64,000 bases of DNA from an uncultured Gammaproteobacteria bacterium (GTDB lineage Bacteria > Pseudomonadota > Gammaproteobacteria > DRLM01): NCBI GenBank assembly GCA_963729605.1, contig CAVSNY010000006.1, positions 320,001 to 384,000 of the forward strand. The letters run 5' to 3'. Made by a program: the position numbers and the translations under genes. The notes under the pieces are model-generated. The model was given only the letters and a program-made list of their open reading frames with translations. It made no database searches and had not been told where the DNA came from. Position 1 is the first letter of the stretch; each line of letters begins with the position of its first letter. This document shows, piece after piece, positions 2,808 through 41,901 of the stretch.

Positions 2808-3049
2808 TGATGGGCGATGTCCTCGCACGGGCGAATTACGCAAACGCCGCAATCGATCCGCCAACGCAAACGGCCACGCAACGTCCGACGACACGCGGAA
2901 AACGCAGCGTGTTTATCGTGTCGCCGTCGCAACCATGAATGCGGCCTGGGGTCTTCGATTTAGTAAAAGAATCGCCCTTCACCCGGCGGTACACGCTGCG
3001 CGTTTACACACCGCGACGGCTATCGTATAAATTTGATACTGGAGATGTG

Positions 3050-3475
3050 ATGTTCAATCCTTATGTAATCATACTCGCCCTCTTCACCCTCGCCGGACTG
3101 GCCATCGCCGTCTGGGGCTGGCGGCTGATCGCCCAGGGTCGTGCGACCCGGCGCTGGCCAACTGTCGAAGGCATCGTCGAAAACGAAACGCAAACCGATG
3201 ACAAGATGCCGATCCCCTACGTGAATTACTCGGTGAACGGCCACGCCTACCGCCAGGCATTAACCTTGCCGGACGAAATGCCGTCCGTGGGTGCGGTCAC
3301 GACCAGGCATCTCGAAAAATTTCCGGCGGGCGCCCGTATCCAAGTCCACTACGATCCCGCCCATCCCGAACACATCACCCTCGAACCCGGCCTGGGACGC
3401 GGCGATTGGCTGGTGTTCGCCGCCGGGATAGCCGCCATGCTGTTCGGGATACTCGCTTTATTATTTGGAAAATGA
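3050..3475 (+). CDS. DUF3592-like membrane protein
   Basis: N- and C-terminal TM helices around WPTVEG...Y.Y.VNG..Y...VHYDP.HP; GGAG RBS before ATG 3050. Confidence 0.8.
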   Translation: MFNPYVIILALFTLAGLAIAVWGWRLIAQGRATRRWPTVEGIVENETQTDDKMPIPYVNYSVNGHAYRQALTLPDEMPSVGAVTTRHLEKFPAGARIQVHYDPAHPEHITLEPGLGRGDWLVFAAGIAAMLFGILALLFGK

Positions 3476-3640
3476 GCGCGGGAAATTTCGGGTCGTGGCT
3501 GCCTTTGTTCTACGGCACGCGGCCACTGAACCGCCTTGACCAAGCGCCGTCACCCCCCCGGCGAATGCCCCGTAAAATAGCGACCCATAACAGCGGGGCG
3601 CATCGTCTACTGTCAAACTGTAGCGATCTATCCAAGACCA

Positions 3641-3790
3641 CTAGACGATTCGACGACCTTGAATGAGACGAATCAGTATCACCACGATGGCGATCACCAA
3701 AAGAATATGAATGAATCCCCCCATGGTGTATGAGCTGACCAAGCCAAGTAACCACAATACAATTAAGATGACCGCTATTGTCTCGAGCAT
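3641..3790 (-). CDS. lmo0937-family (DUF5670) small membrane protein, 49 aa
   Basis: Not in the ORF track. Translation MLETIAVILIVLWLLGLVSSYTMGGFIHILLVIAIVVILIRLIQGRRIV*; strong AGGAGG RBS. Confidence 0.9.
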   Translation of the reverse strand: MLETIAVILIVLWLLGLVSSYTMGGFIHILLVIAIVVILIRLIQGRRIV

Positions 3791-4272
3791 TTTCTATCCT
3801 CCTATTAAACTGCCGTAAATCCAGGTCCGCGGAGAGGTTAGCGACGACGCATCTGACATAGCCGATATTGGCAAGATATTCTCCGCCATCCTCTATCTTG
3901 GAATAGCGGGTTCTCACGGCGACGCGGCACAAGAGGCAAGCACATCATCTCCATCTCACGGACGGTTTTTTCCTTCAATTGCATCGGCAAACCCCGCAAC
4001 AGGTCCGTCAACGCGTAAGCATGTGCTCCTCCGTCGCCAATATCCTGTCCGGCATGCGGCCTGTGGTAGGGTTTTGTTCGGCGAGGTATTCAAGGCCAAA
4101 GCTGATGGAGAGTTATGCGCATCAATCGGATCTGATACCTGAACAATAGAATGCTCATCAATTGAACGGAGCGGCGCTCAGCGAACCATCTCGCACTCGC
4201 CAGCACGGCAAAAGCTGGACCCACTACTGAAATTTATATCCGACAGTGGGCCGCATCCTAACTATCCACCCC

Positions 4273-4590
4273 TCATTTGAGCAGGATGTCGTCCTTGACG
4301 GATTTTACGCCCTTGACGCCTTGCGCAATCTCCGCCGCCTTGCGTTTGTCGCCCGCGTCGTGCACAAAGCCACTCAATTGAACCACGCCTTTGAAGGTTT
4401 CAACGTTGATCTCGGCCGACTTCAACGCAGCGTCATTGAAAATCGCCGCCTTCACTTTGGTGGTAATGACAGTATCGTCAATGAATTCGCCAGTCCCTGC
4501 GTGCTTTGCCGATGACGCACAACCCAGGGCGGAGGCTAACACAACGGTAAAAAACAATGCGGCAATGTGTTTCAGTGTTTTCACGGACAT
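4273..4590 (-). CDS. BON-domain (OsmY-like) lipoprotein
   Basis: Lipobox ALGC; DDTVITTKVKA...INVETFKGVVQLSGFV...VKGVKSVKDD is a single BON domain; AGGAG RBS. Confidence 0.92.
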   Translation of the reverse strand: MSVKTLKHIAALFFTVVLASALGCASSAKHAGTGEFIDDTVITTKVKAAIFNDAALKSAEINVETFKGVVQLSGFVHDAGDKRKAAEIAQGVKGVKSVKDDILLK

Positions 4591-4859
4591 GCTCTCCTGA
4601 TGCTATTGAAATAATACTTCTAATTCTCGCTCGAATTTATAATGAGCCGCTCCTACTGACGACCACTCAACGCGGTGCGATGCTGCGGCCGGTGCTGAAA
4701 GCTGCCTGTCTGATTGTCAATGCGCATCTATAAAAAGCACCGTCGCCATACCGAACCCGCTGGCTGCCATCGCCATCAAGCTCACGCATCGACGCAATCA
4801 CACCGTACCTCGCCATTCTGAAACGGTGAGAGGCAGCTTAGGCTCAACACTGAGCGCGG

Positions 4860-4879
4860 TCGGTACGGTGACGCACATA
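4860..4879. promoter_or_regulatory. Crp-family operator copy 1 (upstream of BON gene)
   Basis: TCGGTACGGTGACGCACATA; minus-strand TAAGCT (-10) at 4835-4840 puts the centre at -41.5. Confidence 0.75.
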
Positions 4880-5132
4880 AGACAGACAATGGTCGTGTAG
4901 GGTAGATGATCCCCAGGCGGGCTGAGCGACCATTCAACTCTGCATGAATCGTTAAGGATGTCCGAACGCGGATTGACCAGGCGGTTCGGCGCGAAACAGA
5001 GCGACGGAGACCGGTTCGATCGACTCAGCGTACCCGCCGCCTCGGCCGAGGCCGAGACACCGCCATCGTAAATATAACGACTACGTTGATCAGACTAAAT
5101 TAGGCCTCTTCCAAAATTTTCCACAGGCTCGC

Positions 5133-6299
5133 TCAAGCATCCGCGGGTCGTTGCAGTACCAATCGGTACGCATCCATTCCGCGACTGAGGAAGGCGTACG
5201 CCGATCCCCAGAGATAGAGGCGAAAGCGACGGTAGAGCATCTCGCCCCAGCGGCTGATGATCTCCTCCCTCGCGGCATCCAGATTTTCGGCCCACGCCTT
5301 ACATGTGAGGTAATAGTTGTGGCGGTCGTTGTGAACCGCCAACACCTCCAACGGAGTTTTCGCCGCTTCGCTCAGGAACTCGTGTAGACAGAAGTAGCTA
5401 TGATCCCCAGGAAAGATATAACGGGAGACGAAGGTGGGTTTGGAATATTTCTCGCGGAAAGCGCTGGCGTCGAGATACACTCGCCCCCCGGGTTTCAATA
5501 GGTTTTGTAACTGCCGCAACACGGCCGGATAATCGGGAAGATGCTCCATCACGCCCAATATGACGATGGCGTCATAAGGTTCAGGCGAGGTGTATTCCAA
5601 AAAATCCTGGTTCAGCACGCGGCAGGGAAGCTGCAAGCACTGAATCAGATCCGTCAGGAACTCTGCCGAGTGGCGCGATATCGTCAGCGAGGTGACCGCT
5701 ATACCGCGCCGGCCGGCATGCTCGGTAAAGGCGCCCCATCCACCGCCGACATCCAACACGCGACATCCCGGCCGCAATCGGCATGCATCGATGGCAAAGT
5801 CCAGTTTGCGGCACTGCGCCGTTTCCAGGGTCTCGTCGTCGCGCTCGAACACCGCTTGCGAATAACAGCGGGTCGGATCCATGAATTTTAGATAAAACTC
5901 ATTGCTGAAATCATAGTGGCTGGCAATCGCCCGGCGGTCGGTTTGCACCCGTCCGACGAATAGCGGCGCGATCCGCCGCCACAGGGTGTGCAGCGGATGG
6001 CTATCGCTCAGCACGCCGCGGAGACTGACGAAACCCAGCATATCCCCGACGACGTCCAGGCTACCCGCCATGTAAGCTTCGCAGATTCTCAGTTCGTCCA
6101 GTCCGCTGAGAGCGGCCAAACCGTCGCGATCCTTGACCAAGACCTTGAGCGCGGGTTCTCCTTTGCCGAAGCGATAGCTGCGATCTCCCCATAAGCGAAT
6201 CTCGAAGGGAATCTTTATCTGATCGGCCAAGCGATCCTGAAACAGCTTGAATACCCTATCGTAACGCGTTACCAAGGCAGCTTCGGCCGATATATCCAT
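5133..6299 (-). CDS. cfa: Cyclopropane-fatty-acyl-phospholipid synthase family SAM methyltransferase
   Basis: IASHYDFSNEFY, YSQAVF, LETAQ.RKLD, VLDVGGGWG, YIFPG, YYLTCKAW, FRLYLWG motifs; GGGAGGAG RBS before ATG 6299. Confidence 0.88.
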   Translation of the reverse strand: MDISAEAALVTRYDRVFKLFQDRLADQIKIPFEIRLWGDRSYRFGKGEPALKVLVKDRDGLAALSGLDELRICEAYMAGSLDVVGDMLGFVSLRGVLSDSHPLHTLWRRIAPLFVGRVQTDRRAIASHYDFSNEFYLKFMDPTRCYSQAVFERDDETLETAQCRKLDFAIDACRLRPGCRVLDVGGGWGAFTEHAGRRGIAVTSLTISRHSAEFLTDLIQCLQLPCRVLNQDFLEYTSPEPYDAIVILGVMEHLPDYPAVLRQLQNLLKPGGRVYLDASAFREKYSKPTFVSRYIFPGDHSYFCLHEFLSEAAKTPLEVLAVHNDRHNYYLTCKAWAENLDAAREEIISRWGEMLYRRFRLYLWGSAYAFLSRGMDAYRLVLQRPADA

Positions 6300-6522
6300 T
6301 GATCGCTCCTCCCATGAAACCCTAAAGTCCCACACCTTTAACAAGCACAGATCAGGATACTATCAGTTGAGGGATAACAGGGCTGTCAGTTTACAACACG
6401 CTTTGATTTTTATTGTCACGGCATCCGCCGTCCTCTTTCAGATCAAGGCCGCGGTCGAATAAAAACCGATCTTGCATCTTAAGGATAGTAAAACGGGTCA
6501 AGCATTATGACCTGGCGGCGCC

Positions 6523-8685
6523 TCACTTGAATTCAGCAAGGGCTCGCTTCATACTGGCCCTAAGCTCATCCCAGACCTTATCCACGATTACTTTGCCTGG
6601 CATACCGGTTCTCAGTAGTTCGGTGTACTCCTCGGCAACCATCGGCCGGTGGAAGTAATACCCTTGCGCCTCTCCACAGCGTGCCGTTCGGAGAAAGTCG
6701 AGTTGCTCTTGAGTTTCCACACCCTCGGCGCTGACCCGCTTATGAAGACTATTGCCCATGCCAATCACGGCACTAACGATGATGGCATCGTCCGGATCGG
6801 TGGTGATGTCACGCACGAACGACTGGTCGATTTTCAGGGTATCGATCGGAAAGCGTTTCAGATAACTTAAACTGGAATAACCAGTACCGAAGTCGTCGAT
6901 AGCCAGCTGCACGCCCAAGGCTTTGAGCGCCTGCAACACGCTGGCGGTGGATTCACCATCCTGCATGAGCGCGCTCTCGGTCAGCTCGATCCCGAGATAA
7001 GCCGGCTCCAGGCGAGTTTCCTCCAGGGCGTCGCGAATACCCTCGAGAAAATGCTTGCTGCGGAATTCGACTGCCGAGATATTGATAGCCACCGAGGCTG
7101 GCTGCAGGCCGGCATCCAACCACGCGCGAATTTGCCGGCATGCCTCGCGCAATACCCAACGCCCGATCGGTACGATGAGGCCGCACTCTTCGGCGATGGA
7201 TACGAATTGCCCAGGATGGAGGAGGCCGCGCTTGGGATGCAGCCAGCGGATAAGTGCCTCGGCGCCAGCAATCTCGCCGGTCTCGAGATGGATTTTTGGT
7301 TGATAATGCAAGACGAATTCCTGTGCTGCCACGGCACGCCGCAGCCCGGTTTCGAGAGATTGCCGCTCCACGGCCCGGTCGTTCATGTCCTGCATAAAGA
7401 ACTGGAAATTGTCGCGGCCATTTTGCTTGGCGTAATACATCGCGGCGTCGGCATTCTTGATTAGGGTTTCCGCATCTTCGCCGTCACCGGGATAAATGCT
7501 GATGCCTATGCTGAGGGTGATATGGAGGTCGTGTCCCGCGATATGGTGACGGTCCGCCAGCGCCAAAATGATCTTTTCCGCGCGGTGCGCCGCATCTTCC
7601 GAACGCTCGATATCGGAAAGCAACACCACGAATTCATCCCCGCCCTGGCGGCTGACGGTATCCGACTCGCGGACGCATGTCGTCAAGCGTTCCGCCACCG
7701 ACTCCAGTAATTTATCGCCGATCAGATGCCCCAACGAGTCATTAATGTTTTTGAACATATCCAGGTCCATAAACAGTACTGCCAGTCGTTTTCGCCGCCG
7801 CCGGGCATGCGAGATCGCTTGGGTAAGCCGATCACTCAAAAGCACGCGGTTGGGCAACCCAGTAAGAAAATCATGTTGGGCCAAATGCGACATTTTGAGT
7901 ACCATTGTCCGCGCCTCGCTGACATCATGGAAAACCATCACGGCGCCGATCACGTGACCGCCCCGGTCGCGAATGGGGGCAGCGGAATCCTCGATGGGTA
8001 CTTCAACACCGTCGCGCCGGATCAGGCTACTGTTTGCACTGAGTCCGACGGCTTTATTTCGCAGCACGGCCAATTCGATAGGACTGCGGGCAGGTTCGCC
8101 GGTAATGCCGTCGATGATGTGGAGCACGTCGGCAAGCGGCCGACCGGTTGCCTCTTCCCGCGACCAACCGGTCATGCGTTCGGCGACCAGATTGAGGTAG
8201 GTGACATTGCCGAGAATGTCGGAGCTGATTACGGCATCACCTATGGAGTCGAGCGTGACTTGAGCACGCTCTCTCTCGATAAACAGCGCCTCTTCCGCTA
8301 CCTTGCGCGCTATCACGTTGCGCAGGGCGTGAGACAAGGAGTAGCCGTCAATATGACTTCTGAGGAGGAAATCCTGCGCGCCGTGTTGTATGGCTTGCTG
8401 TGCGGCGTCTTCCTGGTCCAAATCACTGAGAATCAGGATCGGGACCTGAGACTCGATCGCATATAATTTATCGAAGGTCTCGATACGATGACTATCGGAC
8501 AGGAATAGATTGAGTAAGACCGCCTTGATCCCTCCATCATTGATGCGTGCGATGCCGTCCGCGAGTGTTGTAACCCATTCGATCGTGAATGGACCATATC
8601 TTGCGTCAACGAGCGTATCCCGAATCGATTTGGCAGCAGTGGGATCACCTTCGATGAGTAGAACCCTTTCATTGATATTGCCCAT
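6523..8685 (-). CDS. REC(degenerate)-PAS-GGDEF-EAL c-di-GMP metabolising protein
   Basis: HDFLTGLPNR, RESD I-site, GGDEF, AEALIRW and DDFGTGYSSLSYL all intact; PAS (TLDSIGDAVI...YLN); REC has LLNL in place of LLDL. Confidence 0.95.
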   Translation of the reverse strand: MGNINERVLLIEGDPTAAKSIRDTLVDARYGPFTIEWVTTLADGIARINDGGIKAVLLNLFLSDSHRIETFDKLYAIESQVPILILSDLDQEDAAQQAIQHGAQDFLLRSHIDGYSLSHALRNVIARKVAEEALFIERERAQVTLDSIGDAVISSDILGNVTYLNLVAERMTGWSREEATGRPLADVLHIIDGITGEPARSPIELAVLRNKAVGLSANSSLIRRDGVEVPIEDSAAPIRDRGGHVIGAVMVFHDVSEARTMVLKMSHLAQHDFLTGLPNRVLLSDRLTQAISHARRRRKRLAVLFMDLDMFKNINDSLGHLIGDKLLESVAERLTTCVRESDTVSRQGGDEFVVLLSDIERSEDAAHRAEKIILALADRHHIAGHDLHITLSIGISIYPGDGEDAETLIKNADAAMYYAKQNGRDNFQFFMQDMNDRAVERQSLETGLRRAVAAQEFVLHYQPKIHLETGEIAGAEALIRWLHPKRGLLHPGQFVSIAEECGLIVPIGRWVLREACRQIRAWLDAGLQPASVAINISAVEFRSKHFLEGIRDALEETRLEPAYLGIELTESALMQDGESTASVLQALKALGVQLAIDDFGTGYSSLSYLKRFPIDTLKIDQSFVRDITTDPDDAIIVSAVIGMGNSLHKRVSAEGVETQEQLDFLRTARCGEAQGYYFHRPMVAEEYTELLRTGMPGKVIVDKVWDELRASMKRALAEFK

Positions 8686-8814
8686 GCTCGTAAACTCCCT
8701 TAAATGCTAAATGACGCAGAGTGCAGGGTGTCGAACCCACTGCTGTTCTTAAGCTGCTCATCCATCGGGCAAGTCAATCGCCATGATTACGATACAGCGA
8801 GAAGGTTGGCATGC

Positions 8815-8834
8815 TCTGTTCGCTAACGAACATA
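8815..8834. promoter_or_regulatory. Crp-family operator copy 2 (upstream of GGDEF-EAL gene)
   Basis: TCTGTTCGCTAACGAACATA; minus-strand TATCGT at 8789-8794 puts the centre at about -42.5. Confidence 0.78.
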
Positions 8835-8947
8835 AGGTTGTAGCCGGTCTCAACCGGAGGACAGTGGTTCGCGGCGTCCATCACCATGAAAATACAACCC
8901 TGATAAGGACAGAGTCCGTTAATTTCTTGTCGTGGATTTATCAGACC

Positions 8948-8977
8948 AAAAAAAGGCCCTGCGAGGGGGCGCAAGGC
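8948..8977 (-). terminator. Intrinsic terminator after PRC-barrel gene
   Basis: Minus strand GCCTTGCG-CCCCCT-CGCAGGGC-C-TTTTTTT. Confidence 0.75.
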
Positions 8978-9041
8978 TGAAGGGAGAATATGTCGTCTAT
9001 ACCGCTTTAACCATAGAACTATAAATCAGTAACCCGCCTAC

Positions 9042-9947
9042 TCACGGCCGACGTTCCACGGTTTCGGGTTTAGGTTCCTGGGGAGCACCGGTCATACTCT
9101 CTTTTAACGACTGCCTCCAGTTTCCCTGGGCTATCTCAGGACTATTCTTAAGCTGGTCCAGGGTAGAAGAAATCCGTAATTTATCTTTCTTTTCGCCCAT
9201 GGAAAGCGTATTGGTAGGGACAACAACCACCTTGTCATTGATGCCCGCAAATCCTCCAATTGAAAGAATGGCGTAAGGTACGCGGCCGCCTTCAAAATCC
9301 ACGGCCAAGTTTTTCACTTTGCCAACATCCTCATTCTGACCAGTAATGATTTTTCCTCCGATAATATCGCTGGCTTTGCTGATCTTTTTGGTCTTTGCTA
9401 ACTCAGCCGGCATGTGTACGCCTGCACGCTGATACATGCTGTTTAAGGCTTGCTGATTTACAGAATTGTTCCACTCAGAATTCGGAAGTGCCGGAGATTC
9501 CTTAATAATCTTCTCTGATAAATTAAGAATAAGAGATTGGCCGGTCGCGACACTCGCTCCGTCATTAAACAAACCGAAACTTTGCGGCGGCATGGCTAAT
9601 AATTTATCGCCCATCCCCAGAAAACCACCTGCGGACACTACTACGTAGCTGATTCGACCGCCGTTCAAATCGATGGCTAAATCCTTCACTTCTCCAATCT
9701 TATTTTTTTTGTTGTCAGTAACGCTTTTTCCAATTATGTCGGACGCTTCTACAAATTTGTGGCCCTGTTCCAGCTCTTGGGCACGACGCCCGTCTTCCAC
9801 GCCCTCTTGAACTTTTCCTTGTCGACTTGAATCGGAAGCGGCGATGACCTCACTCGTCCCCAGCGTCATTGTCGAAAAGAAAATGGCGCCCGTTAAAAAC
9901 ATACCCGCCCCTTTCATGGGGCGAACCGCCAACATTTGCTTACTCAT
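9042..9947 (-). CDS. Exported tandem PRC-barrel domain protein
   Basis: N-terminal hydrophobic segment; two repeats of ASDIIG..(V/I).....(I/V)G.VK.LA.D..GGR..Y...S.GGF.G..DK; AAGGAG RBS before ATG 9947. Confidence 0.88.
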   Translation of the reverse strand: MSKQMLAVRPMKGAGMFLTGAIFFSTMTLGTSEVIAASDSSRQGKVQEGVEDGRRAQELEQGHKFVEASDIIGKSVTDNKKNKIGEVKDLAIDLNGGRISYVVVSAGGFLGMGDKLLAMPPQSFGLFNDGASVATGQSLILNLSEKIIKESPALPNSEWNNSVNQQALNSMYQRAGVHMPAELAKTKKISKASDIIGGKIITGQNEDVGKVKNLAVDFEGGRVPYAILSIGGFAGINDKVVVVPTNTLSMGEKKDKLRISSTLDQLKNSPEIAQGNWRQSLKESMTGAPQEPKPETVERRP

Positions 9948-10261
9948 ATCCAACTCCTTAATTTAAATAAACATAGACACTCGGGATCTGCCTGCGCATT
10001 TTTAGCAAGTGCCCTATACCACAGAAGACGACATACATTAAAAATTTTTAGAGCGGCTTGGAATTTCATACTCAATATGAGCATGGCCAGGTATGCCATC
10101 TGAGTTATCCGGCAAACACCTTCAGCCACGTGGCGGATAAATCAGAGTTAAATGAGCCTTACTTTTTGTGATTTAAACATCTCGAGAGAGGACCCGGCTG
10201 CGCAGGCAGACTCTAAGATCAACCTTCACTGCCAACTTTATACACCCCTCCCACAATACGT

Positions 10262-10281
10262 TCTGTACGCTGACGCACAGA
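10262..10281. promoter_or_regulatory. Crp-family operator copy 3 (between divergent PRC-barrel and crp genes)
   Basis: TCTGTACGCTGACGCACAGA, the best palindrome. Minus-strand TATAAA at 10237-10242 gives centre -41.5; plus-strand TATAAT at 10321-10326 gives centre -61.5. Confidence 0.82.
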
Positions 10282-10343
10282 GGCGGCAGATTGACGCTGC
10301 CTCATGCCGACGCTTACTCATATAATCTTCTGGCTGATTATGT

Positions 10344-10363
10344 TCTGTGCGGTAGAGGACATA
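10344..10363. promoter_or_regulatory. Crp-family operator copy 4 (degenerate, upstream of first crp)
   Basis: TCTGTGCGGTAGAGGACATA; right arm has one core mismatch. Confidence 0.6.
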
Positions 10364-10475
10364 CCAGGAAGGAGGGGTATATACTGCGACGGCGTAAGTC
10401 CATCCCCATATCAACCCATGGTCCTTATTGTCGAGATCGCCTCATGGAACGAATCTGACAGCATGGAGGTGTCGT

Positions 10476-11192
10476 ATGGCTTTACAAAAACCAGAGCACA
10501 ACAATCTTCTCGCCGCCCTGCCCGAGCCCATACGCGGGCGGCTGTTTCCGCATTTGGAATTAGTAGAGATGCCGCTTGGCGAGGTCCTTTACGAATCCGG
10601 CTGCCAGTTGCACTACGTCTATTTCCCCACGACCTCCATCGTGTCTTTGCTTTACGTCATGGAAGATGGCGCATCGGCCGAGATTGCGGTGGTGGGAAAG
10701 GAAGGCATACTCGGCGTCGCCATTTTCATGGGCGGTGAAACCACCCCGAGCCGGGCCATCGTACAGAGCGAAGGCCACGGATTCCGGCTCAAGGCGCAGT
10801 TGCTCAAGGATGAATTCAATCGTGCCGGACCGATGATGCATCTATTGCTGCGTTACACCCAGGCGCTGATTACCCAGATGTCGCAGACGGCGGTCTGCAA
10901 TCGGCATCATTCCGTACATCAACAACTGTGTCGCTGGCTGCTGTTGAGCCTGGACCGACTGCCTTCGAGCAAACTGACCATGACTCAGGAATTGATCGCC
11001 AATATGCTCGGCGTGCGCCGCGAGGGAGTTACGGAAGCCGCCGGTAAATTGCAAAACGCCGGGTTGATACTCTACAGTCGCGGACAAATCACCATTCTCG
11101 ATCGGCAGGGACTGGAGGCGCAGGCCTGCGAGTGCTATCAAGTGGTCAAAAAGGAGTTTGATCGCCTGCTCCCCGACCTGATGGCCGAGTAA
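10476..11192 (+). CDS. Crp/Fnr-family transcriptional regulator (paralogue 1)
   Basis: NNLLAALP, VYFPTT cNMP-fold domain, HTH TQELIANMLGVRREGVTEAAGKLQ, C-terminal ACECY; GGAGG RBS before ATG 10476. Confidence 0.95.
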   Translation: MALQKPEHNNLLAALPEPIRGRLFPHLELVEMPLGEVLYESGCQLHYVYFPTTSIVSLLYVMEDGASAEIAVVGKEGILGVAIFMGGETTPSRAIVQSEGHGFRLKAQLLKDEFNRAGPMMHLLLRYTQALITQMSQTAVCNRHHSVHQQLCRWLLLSLDRLPSSKLTMTQELIANMLGVRREGVTEAAGKLQNAGLILYSRGQITILDRQGLEAQACECYQVVKKEFDRLLPDLMAE

Positions 11193-11252
11193 TTCCTTAC
11201 CAAGCGTTGCACACTCTCACCCTGACCCACCCACCTCGCAGAAATTACGCGC

Positions 11253-11272
11253 TATGTTCGACAGCGTACAGA
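11253..11272. promoter_or_regulatory. Crp-family operator copy 5 (upstream of second crp)
   Basis: TATGTTCGACAGCGTACAGA; plus-strand CAAGCT at 11292-11297 puts the centre at -41.5 and resembles TAAGCT of copy 1. Confidence 0.75.
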
Positions 11273-11662
11273 ATTTACCGCCGCTTCGGCTCAAGCTTAG
11301 CGAGGATTATGTTAGCGAACCAGGATGTATTCTAAAAAGTGCGCCGCCTTTTCGCGCGCGGGAGAGTCTCTCTTAATATAGGCTAATATAGGCGGCACCG
11401 CTGAGGCTGCTAATAGCAGCACGGGCGCATGGGGGGCCGATAAAGGACGCTCCGTTTTTAACAAAGCGTAAATTCAGATAAGACCGAATTACACGCTTCC
11501 CGATCAAATTGCTAGTCGGCCCCTCTTACCAAAATATTGCGCATCGGGTCGGAGACCCTTTTATCCGGCAAACTCCATCCGAAATCAGGATTACATCGCG
11601 TACATGGCCCGCACCGCCCGTTGGCTTTAGACCCGACGCTACAGGAGATTCCTACCCCCACT

Positions 11663-12357
11663 ATGCACGCTCCTCATACCAATCGTCTGCTTACCGCGCT
11701 GCCCCCCAGGATCGGAAACACTTCCTTGCGAGCTGCGAACAAGTCGAACTCGTGTTCGCCGACGTGCTCTGCGAACCGGGCGACCCTATCCGTCACGTTT
11801 ACTTCCCCACCGACAGCTATATTTCTTTGGTTAATCCGATCGATCGCGACACCCGCCTGGAGGTGGCACTGGTAGGTAATGAAGGCATGCACGGGATTGC
11901 CCTGGTACTGGGAGTGAATATTTCACCGCTGCACGCCTTGGTGCAGGGCGATGGTTCCGCGTTGCGCATCAGCGCCGCGCCGTTTCGCCGTCAACTCCAG
12001 CACAGCCCGGCGCTGCAACGGGGTCTGAACAGCTACATCTATGTGCAAATGAGCCAACTCGCGCAGACGGCGGCCTGCACCCGTTTTCATGTGGTCGAGG
12101 CGCGTCTCGCCCGCTGGCTGTTGATGACCCACGATCGAGCGCATTCGGACGAACTGCATATCACCCAAGAATTTCTCGCCTCCATGCTGGGCGTGCGTCG
12201 GGTCGGCATCACCAAGGCCGCCGGCTCACTGCAAAAACGCAAACTGATCAACTATAGCCGCGGCACCATCACGGTTCTCAACCGCGGCGGCCTGGAAGCC
12301 GCTTCTTGCGGGTGTTATCAGGCCGACAAGGCAACGTACACCCGCATCATGGGCTAG
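11663..12357 (+). CDS. Crp/Fnr-family transcriptional regulator (paralogue 2), frameshifted at C6 11702-11707 as sequenced
   Basis: [15 protein letters not shown] lies in one frame and [15 protein letters not shown]...VYFPTD...[24 protein letters not shown]...ASCGCY in another; adding one C joins them and matches paralogue 1. Confidence 0.88.
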
Positions 12358-12504
12358 CCCGCCCGCCATATCTTGATGGATGGATGAAGTCTGCATGCGC
12401 AGTGCGGGATGAAATACTAGGTTACCCGTCTTCACGACAGCCTCGGTGAGACATGCCTCAATCTCTTGCATCCACTCACCCAGAGGCGTTTCCACTATTA
12501 AGAA

Positions 12505-12531
12505 GGAAGCTCTGAATAATTCCGTCCTGGA
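12505..12531 (+). repeat. Solo left end of the MITE-like element at 1137
   Basis: GGAAGCTCTGAATAATTCCGTCCTGGA versus GGAAGCTCTGAATAATTCCATCCTGGA at 1137-1163 (26/27 identical). Confidence 0.8.
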
Positions 12532-12687
12532 TTCACCGGATATAAGGAGAGCGAAAAATGTCATGTTTTCTTTCCTTCATTAAACATTCTGCGCCCGCTC
12601 ATACCGCATAACCAAATTAATTGGTTACCCACATCGGCGGAACGCCGGTTGCATCTCAAATACGGTTCCTTTCCAAAAACTTTTCCT

Positions 12688-12707
12688 AATGTGCGATAGC
12701 GTACGGA
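12688..12707. promoter_or_regulatory. Crp-family operator copy 6 (upstream of DUF3494/OmpA genes)
   Basis: AATGTGCGATAGCGTACGGA, followed by a one-base-shorter echo ATATGCGATAAGTACGGA at 12721-12738. Confidence 0.68.
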
Positions 12708-12922
12708 AGGCGGTGGACGAATATGCGATAAGTACGGACGGCATGATAACCCGTCTTATCGCACTGATCCGATTTTGCATTAACGCCGGTCAAAGTGATG
12801 CTCACCCAGCCGCGAAGCCCGGCAACAGCGAAAGTCAAACATTGAAAAAACACATCGGCATAAACACCGGCAAAGAGCCGGTCGATTTTTTAACGATTCT
12901 GCCAGAGTAAAGAGGGTTGCAA

Positions 12923-14755
12923 ATGAAAAATTTCGAAAGCATTACTAAACTACCGACGCAGTTCATGACATTACTGTTGATTATATTAATGGCGGCATGC
13001 GAAGGCGGGCGAGATCCCATCCTAGGCGGGGGCGGTAGTCTCGCCGCACTCGCGCCGACGGTGACTGCCGTCGCCCCGGTCAATAACGCCACCGGCGTAG
13101 CGATCAACACCCTCATCACCGCCGCTTTTAATGAACCGATGGCCCCCCTCACCGGCGCGGCAAGCTTCACGGTGACGTGCGCGGCGCCTTGCACCGATCC
13201 CACGGGCACGGTAGCCCTCGACGCCACAAACAGGATTGCCAGCTTTACTCTTGCAAGCACAACCACCCTCGCGCCCTCCACCCTCTATACGGTCACGGTC
13301 ACCGGGGCTCGCAGTCTCGCCACAGGCCTGGCATTGGCGAGCCCCTATGTATGGCGCTTTACGACGGGCGTCACGTCGGACACCACCCGGCCCACAGTGA
13401 CGTCTACCGCCCCTGCCGACGGTGCTACCGACGTTGCGATCAACAGGAGGGTCACCGCGACGTTCAGTGAAGACATGAACCCGGCAACGATCACCGGAAC
13501 CAGCTTTGCGGTGACGGGGCCCGGCACAACCGGGGTAGCAGGCACGGTGAGCTACACTGTCGGTGCCAGAACCGCGATCTTTACGCCGACAGCCAATCTG
13601 CCAGACGGCGTCTTGTTTACTGCCACGCTTAACACGGGAAACGCGGATCTGGCCGGCAATACGCTGGCGGTTAACAAGGTATGGACCTTTACAACCGGTA
13701 CGGCCGCAGATACCACCGCACCCACGGCGATTCTGGTGAATCCCGCCGATCTTGCCACGGCCGTGGCAGTCAACAGTGCCGTCAACGTGACGTTCAGCGA
13801 GGCAATGGACCCGTTAACGATCAGCACGGCCAGCTTTATGGTACAAGCCAGCGGCCCCCCGCTGGGTCCAACATTAGCAGGGTCGGTCAGCCATGATCCA
13901 CTGACCCATATTGCAACCTTTACGCCCTCAAGCGATCTCGCAGTCAATACCGCGTATACAGCCACGGTTACCACCGAAGCCACCGACTTGGCGGGAAATG
14001 CGCTTGCGGTTAACAAAATATGGAGTTTTACAACTGCAGCAGCAGCGCCGGTGATACAAACCGCGGTAAACCTGCAATCGGTCGCACCGTTCGGCGCGGC
14101 GGGTGGCGCGGGGATCACCAGCTGCGGGAATACCGTGATTACGGGTGATGTCTCGACCACCTCCGCATCGACTTTAGTCACTGGATTAACCGATGGGAAC
14201 GGACTCGGCAACTCCTATACGATCGCGGGTTGTCCGGGAATAGTAGACGGAAAGATCTATACCGCCCCACCACCGCCCGGAGACGCAGATTCACTGGCGA
14301 TCGCAACTCAGGCCCAAGATGATGCGCAAACCGCGTTTGATGCCACCTCGCCCGCGTCAATGCCGGGGGGAATAAGTCAGGCCGCCGAACTCGGCGCGCT
14401 AACCCTCGCCCCCGGTATCTATACGTCGGGAACCTCGTTTGAGATAACCACCGTGGATCTCACCCTCGACGCCCAGGGCGACGCGAATGCCGTCTGGATA
14501 TTCCAGTCACCGAGCACGCTCACCGTGGGAGTCAATGTCAACGTTATTCTGACCAACGGCGCCAAGGCCAAGAATGTTTTTTGGCATGTCGGCAGTGCAG
14601 CCACTATCAACGCCGGCGCGGCGATGCAAGGAACCATCCTAGCCTTTTCAGGCGTCTCGATGGGTACCGGCGCGACGCTGGAGGGCAGGGCCATATCCCT
14701 GGTCGGCGGCCCGGTTACCTTGCTGAGCAACATTATCAACGTGCCTGCCCCGTAA
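12923..14755 (+). CDS. Lipoprotein with three Ig-like (Big_5/SbsA-type) domains and C-terminal DUF3494 ice-binding-like domain
   Basis: Lipobox LMAAC; three PT(V/A)....P...AT.VA.N....(A/T)F.E.M...(W.FTT) repeats; DUF3494 signature LAPGIY, LTLDAQGDANAVWIFQ, LTNGAKAKNVFWHVGSAATI, GTILA, LEGRA. Confidence 0.9.
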   Translation: MKNFESITKLPTQFMTLLLIILMAACEGGRDPILGGGGSLAALAPTVTAVAPVNNATGVAINTLITAAFNEPMAPLTGAASFTVTCAAPCTDPTGTVALDATNRIASFTLASTTTLAPSTLYTVTVTGARSLATGLALASPYVWRFTTGVTSDTTRPTVTSTAPADGATDVAINRRVTATFSEDMNPATITGTSFAVTGPGTTGVAGTVSYTVGARTAIFTPTANLPDGVLFTATLNTGNADLAGNTLAVNKVWTFTTGTAADTTAPTAILVNPADLATAVAVNSAVNVTFSEAMDPLTISTASFMVQASGPPLGPTLAGSVSHDPLTHIATFTPSSDLAVNTAYTATVTTEATDLAGNALAVNKIWSFTTAAAAPVIQTAVNLQSVAPFGAAGGAGITSCGNTVITGDVSTTSASTLVTGLTDGNGLGNSYTIAGCPGIVDGKIYTAPPPPGDADSLAIATQAQDDAQTAFDATSPASMPGGISQAAELGALTLAPGIYTSGTSFEITTVDLTLDAQGDANAVWIFQSPSTLTVGVNVNVILTNGAKAKNVFWHVGSAATINAGAAMQGTILAFSGVSMGTGATLEGRAISLVGGPVTLLSNIINVPAP

Positions 14756-14898: not shown

Positions 14899-16395
14899 AT
14901 GAAACTAGCAAGAGCCAAATCAGCAAGAACCTCAGGGACGCTGGGGTTGATGGCACTCGCTGCGATCACCAGCTCATTCGCAATGGCGGACGATTCAGGC
15001 TGGTACGGCGGGATCAATCTTGGCCACTCGAGCGCCAAATTCGACGACGGCAATATCACCCGCGGCCTACAGGAGCGCGGTTTTACCACGACCTCGTTCG
15101 CCGGGGACGACGACGAACTCGGCTATAAGCTTTTTGGCGGGTATCAGTTCAACAAGAATTTTGCGCTTGAAGGCGGTTATTTCGATCTGGGCGAGTTTGA
15201 TTTTACGGCGACCACGGTGCCGGCCGGGACACTGAACGGCAATATCAAGCTCAAAGGCGTGAATCTCGATGCCGTCGGCATATTACCCCTCGCCGAACGA
15301 TTTTCTGCATTTGGCCGGGTCGGATTGAACTACGCTGAAGCCGAAGACTCCTTCACCGGCACCGGATTAGTCAATGTGCTCAACCCCAACTCCAGCAAGC
15401 GTGATACGAATTACAAGTTTGGCTTGGGGCTTCAGTACGATTTCACGGAATCTCTCGCAATGCGCGCCGAGGCGGAACGCTACCGGATCAACGACGCCGT
15501 CGGCGACAAAGGCGACGTCGATCTGGTCTCGGTCGGCCTGGTCTACCGGTTCGGCAAAAATAAGGCCGCTCCCGTAGCCGCCACGAAAACGGCGGCGACC
15601 CCTCCCTCCGCGCCCATGGTTGCGGCGGCACCGGTGCTGGTTGTCGTGCCGGTCCCGGCGCAGACCGAACAGTATTGCAGCATTCTCGACATCCAGTTCG
15701 AAATTAACCAGGACGAAATTCAGCGCGAAGAGCAGGAGAAGCTCGCGGTGGTGGGCACCTTCTTGAACAAATATCCCGACACCACGGCCATGATCGAGGG
15801 TCACAGCGATAATGTAGGAATGCCTGAGCAAAATATAAAACTGTCCCAACAGCGGGCGAAGAGCGTGGTGGACTATCTGGTGAATAACTTCCAGATCGCG
15901 CCGTCCCGCTTGTCGGCGGTGGGCTACGGAGATACCCGCCCCATCGCGGACAACGGTACCGAGGAAGGGAAACGGCGGAACCGGCGTATCAATGCCGTCA
16001 TCGCGTGTGCGACGGACATCGAGGGGCTGACGGTGATCCCCGCCAGAACCACCATGGCCATGCTAATCGAGTTCGACCAGAACAAGGCCGATATTCGGCC
16101 GCAGTACCGCGATGAAATCGGCAAGGTGGCCAATTTTATGAAAGCGAACCCCTCCATCACCGCAACCGTGGAAGGCCATACCGGCAATCTAAGTGGGACC
16201 CCCGAGCTGGCGATGGAAATCTCGCAACGCCGCGCTCAGAAGGTGGTGGATTACCTGGTGGATAACTTTGGTATCGCACGTTCGCGACTTTCCGCGGAAG
16301 GCTTCGGCGAAACTCGACGTTTCGCCTACAACACCAGCTTAGAAGGACAGCAGGAAAACCGCCGGGTCAACATCATCTTCAACTACGCCAAGTAG
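14899..16395 (+). CDS. OmpA-family outer membrane protein with beta-barrel and two C-terminal peptidoglycan-binding domains
   Basis: Signal peptide, GWYGG...GYQFNKNFALEGGY...VGLVYRFG barrel, Pro/Ala linker, two EGH...SQ.RA..VVDYLV...G(Y/F)G.TR...NRR(I/V)N domains. Confidence 0.92.
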   Translation: MKLARAKSARTSGTLGLMALAAITSSFAMADDSGWYGGINLGHSSAKFDDGNITRGLQERGFTTTSFAGDDDELGYKLFGGYQFNKNFALEGGYFDLGEFDFTATTVPAGTLNGNIKLKGVNLDAVGILPLAERFSAFGRVGLNYAEAEDSFTGTGLVNVLNPNSSKRDTNYKFGLGLQYDFTESLAMRAEAERYRINDAVGDKGDVDLVSVGLVYRFGKNKAAPVAATKTAATPPSAPMVAAAPVLVVVPVPAQTEQYCSILDIQFEINQDEIQREEQEKLAVVGTFLNKYPDTTAMIEGHSDNVGMPEQNIKLSQQRAKSVVDYLVNNFQIAPSRLSAVGYGDTRPIADNGTEEGKRRNRRINAVIACATDIEGLTVIPARTTMAMLIEFDQNKADIRPQYRDEIGKVANFMKANPSITATVEGHTGNLSGTPELAMEISQRRAQKVVDYLVDNFGIARSRLSAEGFGETRRFAYNTSLEGQQENRRVNIIFNYAK

Positions 16396-34137: not shown

Positions 34138-37616
<3,479 letters not shown>

Positions 37617-40719: not shown

Positions 40720-41901
40720 TTATGCCGTCGTCGACTGCAAGGTGTACCCCTTCAAGGAACGGGCGAAGTCCTGCAACCCTTTGATGCCGGTTTCCTCGGC
40801 CTGCTTACACCATTCCTGAAGGTGGACCAGCAAGCTGTCTTGCGAGGTGTGGGAACGCTGCCACAAATCCTGCAAACGGGTCTTGTATTCGTAGACCGTG
40901 CTCAAGGCCGGACTGCGGTTCAAGGCCGCCTGTAACTGAACCTTATCCTCCTCGTCCATCACGGCATCGCCGCGCACCAAGGTGGTTTTCGCCCGTTTCA
41001 GCAAACTGCGGCAACCCGTATCGGCCTTGTACGCCTCTTCGCGCAACACCGGCACCACCACGTCTTTGGCGTAATGCGACAATACGTGCAGACGATTCAC
41101 CAAAATCGCCTTCACCGTTTCCATATCCACCGCGTGTTTGCTGGGATTGATCACGGGTTCCGGCGCTACTTTCTTCACCTTGGCCAAACCGAGGATCTCG
41201 AAACTGCGGATATAGAACCAACCGATATCGAACTCCCAGGGCTTGGAAGAGAGCTTGGCCGAGCTCGGGAAGGCATGGTGGTTGTTATGCAACTCTTCGC
41301 CGCCGATGATGATGCCCCAAGGCGAGATATTAGTAGCGGCATCCGGGCTTTCATAATTACGGTAACCCCAGAAGTGGCCAATCCCATTGACGATGCCCGC
41401 CGCGAAAATCGGGATCCACAACATCTGCACCGCCCAGATGGTCAGACCGATGGGTCCGAACAAGAGCAGGTTTATGCTCAACATCACGCCGATGCCTATC
41501 TTGCTGCTGCCGGTGTAGACGTGCCGTTCCAGCCAATCATCGGGCGTGCCGCGACCGTATTTTTCCAGGGTTTCGGCGTTGCGCGACTCTCTCCGATAAA
41601 GCTCGGCGCCTTCCAAGAGCAATTTACGCAAACCAAAGATTTGCGGGCTATGGGGATCTTCTTCGGTTTCACAGCGGGCGTGATGTTTACGATGCACCGC
41701 CGTCCATTCCTTGGTCACCATGCCCGTGGTCAACCACAACCAGAAACGGAAGAAATGACTTACTACCGGATGCAACTCCAAGGAGCGATGAGCCTGATGG
41801 CGGTGCAAATAAATAGTGACGGCGGCGATCGTGACGTGGGTCAGACCCAAGGCCACCAACACATAACCCCACCAGGATAAATCCAACAATCCGTTCAACA
41901 T
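40720..41901 (-). CDS. desA: Delta-9 acyl-lipid fatty acid desaturase
   Basis: His boxes HRHQAH, HRKHH, HNNHH; GEELHNNHH, WEFDIGW; C-terminal helical extension. Confidence 0.92.
   Translation of the reverse strand: MLNGLLDLSWWGYVLVALGLTHVTIAAVTIYLHRHQAHRSLELHPVVSHFFRFWLWLTTGMVTKEWTAVHRKHHARCETEEDPHSPQIFGLRKLLLEGAELYRRESRNAETLEKYGRGTPDDWLERHVYTGSSKIGIGVMLSINLLLFGPIGLTIWAVQMLWIPIFAAGIVNGIGHFWGYRNYESPDAATNISPWGIIIGGEELHNNHHAFPSSAKLSSKPWEFDIGWFYIRSFEILGLAKVKKVAPEPVINPSKHAVDMETVKAILVNRLHVLSHYAKDVVVPVLREEAYKADTGCRSLLKRAKTTLVRGDAVMDEEDKVQLQAALNRSPALSTVYEYKTRLQDLWQRSHTSQDSLLVHLQEWCKQAEETGIKGLQDFARSLKGYTLQSTTA

Follow-up and report, generated by a model that had tools for sequence, protein, structure and literature searches.

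Well-described regulators of the Crp/Fnr superfamily read distinct palindromes. CRP binds TGTGA-N6-TCACA, FNR and the related Anr and Dnr bind TTGAT-N4-ATCAA, and NtcA binds GTA-N8-TAC; CRP, FNR and NtcA share the class II promoter arrangement, in which the box is centred at -41.5 and no -35 element is needed. The box of Clr from Sinorhizobium meliloti is HGTYHC-N4-GRWACA, with the core GTNNC-N4-GNNAC (PMC10127613). Here we analyse six palindromic boxes in a 64-kb stretch of DNA from an uncultured gammaproteobacterium (contig CAVSNY010000006.1, positions 320,001 to 384,000; hereafter the window). The boxes surround two adjacent genes encoding Crp/Fnr-family regulators, referred to herein as Crp1 (10476..11192, plus strand, 238 residues) and Crp2 (11663..12357, plus strand), the latter a paralog 41% identical to Crp1. 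With a probability of roughly 70%, we consider these palindromes to be class II activator sites bound by the regulators encoded among them, namely Crp1 and possibly Crp2. The regulator most likely represents an uncharacterised Crp/Fnr subfamily; no description of this box or regulator was found in the literature searched, with curated regulon databases lying outside that search.

The original prediction, made from the DNA of the window alone, listed six intergenic 20-mers sharing one pattern. All six were found with the sequences and coordinates given, at 4860..4879 (TCGGTACGGTGACGCACATA, box 1), 8815..8834 (TCTGTTCGCTAACGAACATA, box 2), 10262..10281 (TCTGTACGCTGACGCACAGA, box 3), 10344..10363 (TCTGTGCGGTAGAGGACATA, box 4), 11253..11272 (TATGTTCGACAGCGTACAGA, box 5) and 12688..12707 (AATGTGCGATAGCGTACGGA, box 6), and each lies between open reading frames supported by Pfam. 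Taking the 16-bp TGTNCG-N4-CGNACA as the core pattern and dinucleotide shuffles as the background, we found three perfect cores in the window versus 0.08 expected (200 shuffles, maximum 2). With at most one mismatch there were six cores versus 2.75 expected (200 shuffles, maximum 9), and these are exactly the six boxes, with no others in the 64 kb; for the region 4800-12800, the expectation for these six falls to 0.27 (1000 shuffles, maximum 3). No enrichment was seen in the window at up to two mismatches (32 versus 38.9 expected), or with the 20-nt IUPAC pattern at up to three (23 versus 24.6 expected). Since the enrichment appears only at strict settings, the signal consists of near-perfect copies and their clustering. 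A position weight matrix (PWM) was trained on 261 intergenic sites of other genomes only, with the window sites left out. It ranked the six boxes first in the window, at 19.8-26.9 bits (21.8 for box 1, 26.9 for boxes 2 and 3, 26.3 for box 5 and 22.6 for box 6), while the best hits in 50 mononucleotide-shuffled windows averaged 11.8 bits and reached at most 18.5. As this matrix was built from foreign sites only, the ranking is not circular. The six boxes are a real, well-supported regulatory motif.

The next-best PWM hit in the window, at 36943-36962 (TCGGTGCGCTGGCGCACTTC, 15.1 bits), lies inside a phosphoglucomutase/phosphomannomutase-like gene. Its score is within the range of the shuffled windows, and it is probably a chance match.

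The motif recurs beside relatives of Crp1. Eighty loci totalling 1.31 Mb were fetched around Crp1 orthologues of 73-81% identity, from Beta- and Gammaproteobacteria and from some contigs labelled Spirochaetota, Treponema or Terriglobia; strains of Noviherbaspirillum, Methylobacillus and Variovorax are among the carriers. These loci hold 89 perfect cores versus 1.85 expected (20 shuffles, maximum 5), and 317 cores with at most one mismatch versus 60.25 expected (maximum 76). Equal frequency of hits inside coding sequences had been named at the outset as an outcome that would count against a regulatory role; instead, intergenic DNA, which makes up 27.7% of bases, holds 80 of the 89 perfect hits and 181 of the 228 hits with one mismatch. 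The 320 bp ahead of the regulator gene contain a box in 48 of 81 sources (the 80 loci plus the window), and two or more in 15; typically it stands 100-130 nt before the regulator start codon, which holds for the window too. Other loci (for example L006, L036, L041 and L055) likewise have a box between Crp1 and a Crp2-type gene. Box and Crp1 orthologue occur together across these genomes. Across genomes the consensus is T-c-T-G-T-g-C-G-c-T-A-g-C-G-c-A-C-A-g-A, in which the inner positions are nearly fixed (position 5 is C in 94-95% and position 6 is G in 95-98%), and position 4 is mostly G (54%), with A in about 26% of half-sites. Searches for the regulator gene in E. coli genomes, and for a near-identical island in plasmids, found neither.

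Class II spacing had been proposed from four -10-like hexamers (TAAGCT, TATCGT, TATAAA and CAAGCT) noted 19-20 nt beyond the 20-mer. All four are present, and computationally the spacing holds well beyond the window. For every intergenic box with a gene within 350 nt, we recorded the distance of TANNNT from the box centre in the gene-facing direction. Among 253 such views, window sites included, TANNNT stands at offset 30 in 22.9% and at offset 31 in 5.9%, and at about 1% elsewhere. Removal of views whose 60-nt flank was at least 70% identical to another left 245, of which 57 have TANNNT at offset 30 and 14 at offset 31, against a mean of 1.9 (maximum 7) at other offsets; 41 loci contribute to these counts. 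Counted by site, 110 of the 261 carry TANNNT at one of these two offsets (30 or 31), in one direction or both, versus 5-12 at six control offset pairs. The only conserved positions downstream of the boxes are an A at offset 31 (54%) and a T at offset 35 (55%), which match -11A and -7T, the most conserved bases of a -10 element. No conserved -35 was found, offsets 11-29 carrying no information at the intergenic sites of other genomes. A -10 element that occupies -12 to -7 and begins 30 nt from the box centre would place that centre at -41.5. Signatures of a sigma-S-type or extended -10 were not seen, there being no C at offset 29 and no TG at offsets 27-28, and class I positions were not supported, as no second -10 peak stands at other offsets. 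Within the window, the -10 offset is 30 for boxes 1, 3 and 5, 31 for boxes 2 and 6, and 27 for box 4, and a promoter scan found no sigma-70-like -35/-10 pair at the five boxes other than box 4.

We therefore picture the system, on the strength of its spacing, as follows. A regulator dimer would read two T-G-T-N-C-G half-sites, 16 bp overall, together with the flanking T/A. At most promoters the dimer would be centred at -41.5, where it would replace the -35 element and recruit RNA polymerase carrying a sigma-70-type factor, in class II activation of the kind used by CRP, FNR and NtcA.

The original prediction also proposed that the boxes reflect a distinct Crp-family specificity, and the comparison with known systems bears this out as far as computation goes: the boxes flank Crp/Fnr genes, recur beside their orthologues and differ from the boxes of CRP, FNR, NtcA and Clr. 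Crp1 has the features of the superfamily, with a barrel domain (PF00027, cNMP_binding, 31.8 bits against a cut-off of 27.5, E = 1.4e-07), a Crp-type helix-turn-helix domain (PF13545, HTH_Crp_2, 56.9 bits against a cut-off of 27, E = 2e-15) and a palindromic target linked to the regulator. Like E. coli CRP, it combines a cNMP_binding-like barrel with a winged helix-turn-helix, its box has outer TGT and ACA 10 bp apart at a putative -41.5 position, and it keeps the residues R180 and E181. Unlike CRP, to which it is 20% identical (E = 0.005), it has a box with C-G rather than A-N at positions 5-6, has E187 in place of R185 and ends in a C-x-C-Y extension absent from CRP; moreover, the Pfam 'Crp' helix-turn-helix model (PF00325) misses it. 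CRP proper was rejected on the box, the cyclic AMP (cAMP) contacts and the recognition residue R185. FNR, Anr and Dnr belong to the same superfamily as Crp1 and act from the class II -41.5 position that is predicted here, and the cysteine-based sensing of FNR is a precedent for the invariant cysteines of Crp1. Solved FNR and DNR chains match the Crp1 family profile only at E = 5.5e-07 and 4.5e-12, respectively, and the letters of their box are unrelated to those found here. FNR carries an N-terminal cysteine cluster for its iron-sulfur centre, which has no counterpart in Crp1, where cysteines stand at 141, 152, 218 and 220; an FNR identity was rejected on these N-terminal cysteines and on the box.

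NtcA resembles the present system in GT...AC spacing and in the class II activation proposed here, and its NCBIfam model (TIGR03697) is the best-named match, albeit a weak one, at 21.9 bits for Crp1 and 29.1 for Crp2 against a cut-off of 244.95. The inner C-G has no counterpart in NtcA boxes, and an NtcA identity was rejected on this score far under the cut-off and on the A at position 4, present in only about 26% of half-sites. Closest in box plan is Clr, a Crp-like activator, which shares the 16-bp palindrome, the 4-bp centre, the conserved GT/AC and an inner C/G, and which differs in that its inner C lies one position further in (GTNNC versus GTNCG here; PMC10127613). Clr, of cluster G of the Crp-like proteins, was rejected, as 95-98% of our boxes have G where Clr needs C. 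It binds both cAMP and cyclic GMP, and its chain 7pza matches the Crp1 family profile only at E = 1e-06. Better profile matches in the PDB are GlxR of Corynebacterium glutamicum and CRP of Mycobacterium tuberculosis (E = 6.4e-16 to 1e-12), in which the R-E dipeptide of the helix aligns. GlxR is the closest solved structure to Crp1 (E = 6.4e-16 by family profile and 5.8e-06 by single sequence), but both proteins are distant from it, at no more than 62 bits, and the relation is one of fold and family only. YeiL, a stationary-phase Crp/Fnr member of E. coli, is unrelated (BLASTP E = 0.083 over 45 residues). In its predicted workings the system resembles a class II Crp/Fnr activator, and by its domains it is a superfamily member, rather than a new kind of regulator.

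The 120 best relatives of Crp1 are 78-100% identical to it and are named in their sources, where at all, only as 'Crp/Fnr family' or 'CRP-like cAMP-binding protein'; the wider family spans 4273 clusters (50% identity) at E <= 1e-30. In an alignment of 120 homologues, C141, H145, C152, C218 and C220 are invariant, the last two forming the C-x-C-Y of a C-terminal extension of about 25 residues, while C43, the sole N-terminal cysteine, is kept in 7%. E72, R82 and S83 are cAMP-contact residues of E. coli CRP. They align with a gap, T and P in Crp1, in an alignment that is uncertain at 19-20% identity; the effector of Crp1 is probably not cAMP, and its invariant Cys/His set hints at a metal, iron-sulfur or thiol-based (redox) sensor. 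Crp2 also carries HTH_Crp_2 (56.6 bits against a cut-off of 27), and its cNMP_binding region, not reported by Pfam at E <= 0.001, aligns with that of Crp1. The Crp2 type retains the C141, H145, C218 and C220 set as well as the R-R dipeptide of the recognition helix. Its homology-supported start in the window is the ATG at 11663. The first 15 or so codons from there resemble the Crp1 N-terminus, and as assembled their frame differs from that of the remaining gene, with six consecutive C at 11702-11707 where the two frames join; the frame change is either a homopolymer slip in the assembly or a genuine frameshift or phase switch. From about residue 20 on, Crp2 shares 63-69% identity with the Crp2-type genes at five other loci.

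In CRP, E181 reads the base pair equivalent to box position 4. The recognition helix of Crp1 is G-V-R-R-E-G-V-T-E-A-A, and when it is aligned with CRP of E. coli K-12, the conserved R182 and E183 stand at the positions of R180 and E181, and E187 at that of R185; Crp2 has V at the E183 (CRP E181) position and K at the E187 (CRP R185) position. According to section 11 of PMC2677863, R180, E181 and R185 are the base-contacting residues of CRP. The box matches this pattern, keeping the outer TGT of the CRP box and departing from it at the inner positions, where R185 acts in CRP. Helix and box also vary together. Where the orthologue has the helix seen most often, G-V-R-R-E-G-V-T-E-A-A-G (65 orthologue copies), 252 of 518 half-sites have G at position 4 and 38 have C, whereas five Burkholderiaceae loci with S for E183 have G there in 5 of 32 half-sites and C in 10 (Fisher p for E183 versus S loci at position 4, 2e-4 and 1.5e-4). 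A sixth serine case came from the plasmid collection, on a Burkholderia cenocepacia replicon (locus L083, NZ_CP091013.1 254402-295079) with dense variant boxes of the forms GTACG-N4-CGTAC and GTCCG-N4-CGGAC near genes for CsbD, PRC, an AI-2E transporter, LTXXQ, DUF1003, a desaturase and GH94. We considered whether this was the low-oxygen 'lxa' locus of B. cenocepacia, an identification not supported, as no universal stress proteins are among its genes. From the linkage and the helix we infer that Crp1 binds the box.

Several other explanations were weighed against this reading. That the boxes are chance similarities or short dispersed repeats of the repetitive extragenic palindrome or miniature inverted-repeat transposable element type, with no regulatory role, would fit the lack of enrichment at loose thresholds, and is effectively refuted by the six cores where 0.27 are expected in 8 kb, the cross-genome PWM, the intergenic bias and the fixed -10 distance; the boxes show no similarity beyond 20 bp, and only boxes 3 and 5 pair in a similarity comparison. 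The outer TGT/ACA and their 10-bp separation are common to CRP and NtcA boxes, and A at position 4 gives TGTA, as in NtcA sites, so that the six could be variant sites of a known global regulator encoded elsewhere (CRP, FNR/Anr/Dnr or NtcA). We hold this to be very improbable: the C and G at positions 5-6 fit no known box, the NtcA model falls far short of its cut-off, and the box accompanies a Crp1-type regulator across phyla and onto plasmids. If instead the regulator blocked its promoters, the boxes would be repressor operators, and it is at the promoter of Crp1 itself that this looks most plausible. The centre of box 4 lies 122.5 nt before the Crp1 start codon, an autoregulatory position, and the promoter scan there reads AGGACA-18 nt-TATACT (10356-10385), so that the right half of the box also supplies a -35-like hexamer; in addition, -10-like hexamers facing regulator genes are scattered over many offsets. 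A repressor, however, has no need of a single fixed distance, while a -10 at offset 30-31 with no conserved -35 is the signature of activator-dependent class II promoters, and the other five boxes lack a sigma-70-like pair. Repression as the general mode is therefore unlikely in our judgement.

Who occupies the sites is a closer matter. The main binder of the boxes might be the Crp2-type paralog, a Crp1-Crp2 heterodimer or the two as a competing pair, rather than Crp1 alone, a proposal we find doubtful but with some substance. A Crp2-type gene is present within the fetched flanks of 30 of the 80 loci, usually 100-260 bp downstream of Crp1 and on the same strand; box density is 2.93 per 10 kb in such loci versus 1.44 in the others; and Crp2 has kept the R-R dipeptide and the C141/H145/C218/C220 set and has its own box upstream. 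Of 48 loci that lack a nearby Crp2-type gene, 23 nevertheless have a box upstream of Crp1 (22 of 29 where such a gene is near), although a distant Crp2 elsewhere in those genomes is possible, and the change from E to S in Crp1 orthologues tracks the change at position 4. Since Crp2 has V and K at the E183 and E187 positions, an identical specificity is not expected, and the Crp2 of the window is out of frame near its start.

Several points weigh against activation by Crp1 through these boxes. Activation is suggested by geometry, and that geometry has exceptions: box 4, before Crp1, is non-canonical, its best Crp1-ward -10 (TATACT, 10380-10385) lying at offset 27 and the box overlapping a -35-like hexamer (on the other strand TATATG stands at offset 30), and the 54 regulator-facing views scatter -10-like hexamers over offsets 13-33, only 9 of them at 30 or 31. 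Autoregulation may accordingly be repressive or mixed, unlike the control of other targets. The implied leaders are long, at about 238 nt for the BON gene, 277 nt for the PRC-barrel gene and 359 nt for Crp2 (genes described below), and a terminator-like hairpin (12866-12882) lies between box 6 and the next gene downstream. As all serine cases fall in one bacterial family, the Burkholderiaceae, the covariation of helix and base is one evolutionary event and not phylogenetically independent. The data fit Crp1 and Crp2 alike as the binder, and Crp2 is possibly a co-binder. No box with at most one mismatch lies within 320 bp upstream of the regulator in 33 of the 81 sources, and 6 of the 80 loci lack any such core. 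Around three plasmid homologues, no PWM hit within 8 kb exceeds 12.3 bits. The Caballeronia protein is 58% identical to Crp1, the Comamonadaceae protein 59% and the Methylomagnum protein 69%; their helix is the same G-V-R-R-E-G-V-T-E-A-A in Caballeronia and Methylomagnum, with S for G184 in Comamonadaceae. Finally, genes in the loci were called with a crude codon-bias caller (72% of bases coding, starts trimmed), which makes distances and intergenic labels there approximate.

Under activation by Crp1, three units of the window would be served by boxes 1 to 3. Box 1 faces the minus-strand gene for a 105-residue secreted BON-domain (OsmY-like) protein (4273..4590; Pfam BON, 5.8e-19), its predicted target, which matches the NCBIfam OsmY model under the cut-off. 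The -10-like TAAGCT (4840-4835, minus strand) lies at offset 30 from the box centre and implies a transcription start site (TSS) at about 4828; the same hexamer occurs at offset 30 three further times in other genomes. The predicted target of box 2 is the gene for a receiver-PAS-GGDEF-EAL protein of cyclic di-GMP turnover (6523..8685, minus strand; domains from Pfam), with the -10-like TATCGT at 8794-8789 (minus strand, offset 31) and an implied TSS at 8782-8783. Downstream on the same strand, after a gap of 178 nt, lies a gene for a cyclopropane-fatty-acyl-phospholipid synthase-like methyltransferase (5133..6344, minus strand; Pfam CMAS, 4.3e-54), which may be co-transcribed from box 2. A terminator-like hairpin (8977-8956, minus strand) separates box 2 from the upstream PRC-barrel gene (9042..9953, minus strand; 303 residues with two PRC stretches; Pfam PRC, 1.7e-25). 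That gene is in turn the predicted target of box 3, whose -10-like TATAAA at 10242-10237 (minus strand, offset 30) implies a TSS at 10230.

Both regulator genes would themselves belong to the regulon, giving autoregulation and a feed-forward step. Box 5, on the Crp2 side, is followed by the -10-like CAAGCT at 11292-11297 (plus strand, offset 30), with an implied TSS at 11304. In the leader between box 5 and Crp2, a 10-nt unit (TAATATAGGC) is tandemly doubled at 11374-11393, and a terminator-like hairpin is also found at 11546-11558. Box 6 has a weak -10-like ATAAGT at 12728-12733 (plus strand, offset 31), for an implied TSS at about 12739-12740. The nearest plus-strand gene downstream encodes a 612-residue secreted protein with Big_5 repeats and an Ice_binding-like domain (12917..14755; Pfam), probably also a unit of the regulon, and is followed by an OmpA-family gene (14899-16395, plus strand). 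The 157-nt RNA from the implied box 6 start to the hairpin (12739-12895) folds no better than shuffles (z = -0.22), and an Rfam search of 4000-13500 returned nothing credible. The hairpins in the leaders downstream of boxes 5 and 6 may be attenuators or parts of small RNAs.

The predicted regulon across the loci comprises 208 genes whose called start lies at most 350 nt downstream of an intergenic box, with a median distance of 130 nt from box centre to start (quartiles 89-186). Their families were assigned by a Pfam scan and counted by eye. HTH_Crp_2 regulators are the largest class (65 of 208; Crp1, Crp2-type and a few classical Crp/Fnr types), followed by CsbD (11), BON (7), GGDEF and/or EAL proteins, histidine kinases and fatty acid desaturases (6 each) and Transgly_assoc (4). 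PRC, DUF883, DUF4398, phasin, M48 peptidase, AI-2E transporter, Na/H exchanger and Ysc84 families occur twice each, and CMAS, squalene-hopene cyclase, OmpA, LemA, DUF1328 and others once each; 45 genes have no Pfam family at E <= 1e-5. A CMAS gene stands directly behind a box in L058, box-preceded PRC genes occur in L036 and L079, and an OmpA-family gene is a target in L005. Several such families are under the control of RpoS in E. coli (osmY, cfa, csbD-like, ymgE, elaB) or of EcfG in Alphaproteobacteria. Because of this likeness to RpoS and EcfG targets, the box system looks, by analogy, like a stress and envelope-remodelling regulon.

Were this so, a nameless and very common regulator could be assigned a DNA box, along with a promoter architecture and a predicted set of targets; in Beta- and Gammaproteobacteria, a single switch would govern lipid-modifying enzymes and many small stress proteins of unclear control (CsbD, BON, PRC-barrel, Transgly_assoc, DUF883); and both the clustering of such genes in low-GC islands and the presence of the module on mobile elements such as pKLC102 would be accounted for. 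The covariation of E183 with position 4 would likewise offer a testable specificity rule for the Crp/Fnr recognition helix. More tentatively, one might go further and take Crp1 to represent a very large subfamily, spread by horizontal transfer, that would be the master activator of a general stress and envelope-remodelling programme like that of RpoS in Beta- and Gammaproteobacteria, with CsbD, BON, PRC, Transgly_assoc, lipid desaturation and cyclopropanation and cyclic di-GMP turnover among its targets. Such a regulator would sense through a Cys/His centre formed by the dimer helix (C141, H145, C152) and the C-x-C-Y tail rather than through a cyclic nucleotide, and Crp2 would share or compete for the box in a two-regulator switch. 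Taken as a whole, this wider proposal is a possibility that we rate at well below even.

Crp1 homologues are found on mobile DNA, with 63 plasmid records matching Crp1 at E <= 1e-40. The conjugative P. aeruginosa element pKLC102 (L084, NC_019202.1 84797-103495) carries an orthologue 75% identical to Crp1, with six intergenic PWM hits around it (14.8-20.6 bits) and, as neighbours, genes for a GH94 glucan-synthase-like protein, a class I S-adenosylmethionine-dependent methyltransferase and a fatty acid desaturase. In the window, G+C is 47-58% over about 3000-13000 versus 61% for the whole, and the remainder consists of housekeeping genes (ttcA, argA, ptsP, rppH, pilT, secA, lpxC and an fts/mur cluster), with no tRNA genes in the window. 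The low-GC segment at about 3-13 kb fits a horizontally acquired island amid housekeeping genes.

Two pairs of direct repeats about 11.4 kb apart, of 29 nt at 97% identity (1135-1163/12503-12531) and of 26 nt at 81% (1237-1262/12731-12756), lie on either side of the low-GC segment in which both regulators and five of the six boxes are found. The right-hand 26-nt copy overlaps the implied -10/start region of box 6, and no good box was seen at the matching left-hand place, near 1237-1262; the pairs might mark the edges of an island or stem from duplication of part of a promoter. Elsewhere in the window, a DesA-family fatty acid desaturase with a DesA/ISL3 tail domain is encoded at 40720-41901 (minus strand), with no box-like PWM hit upstream. 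In L011, L038 and L067, a box precedes desaturases that also match the ISL3 transposase model, probably via the same tail.

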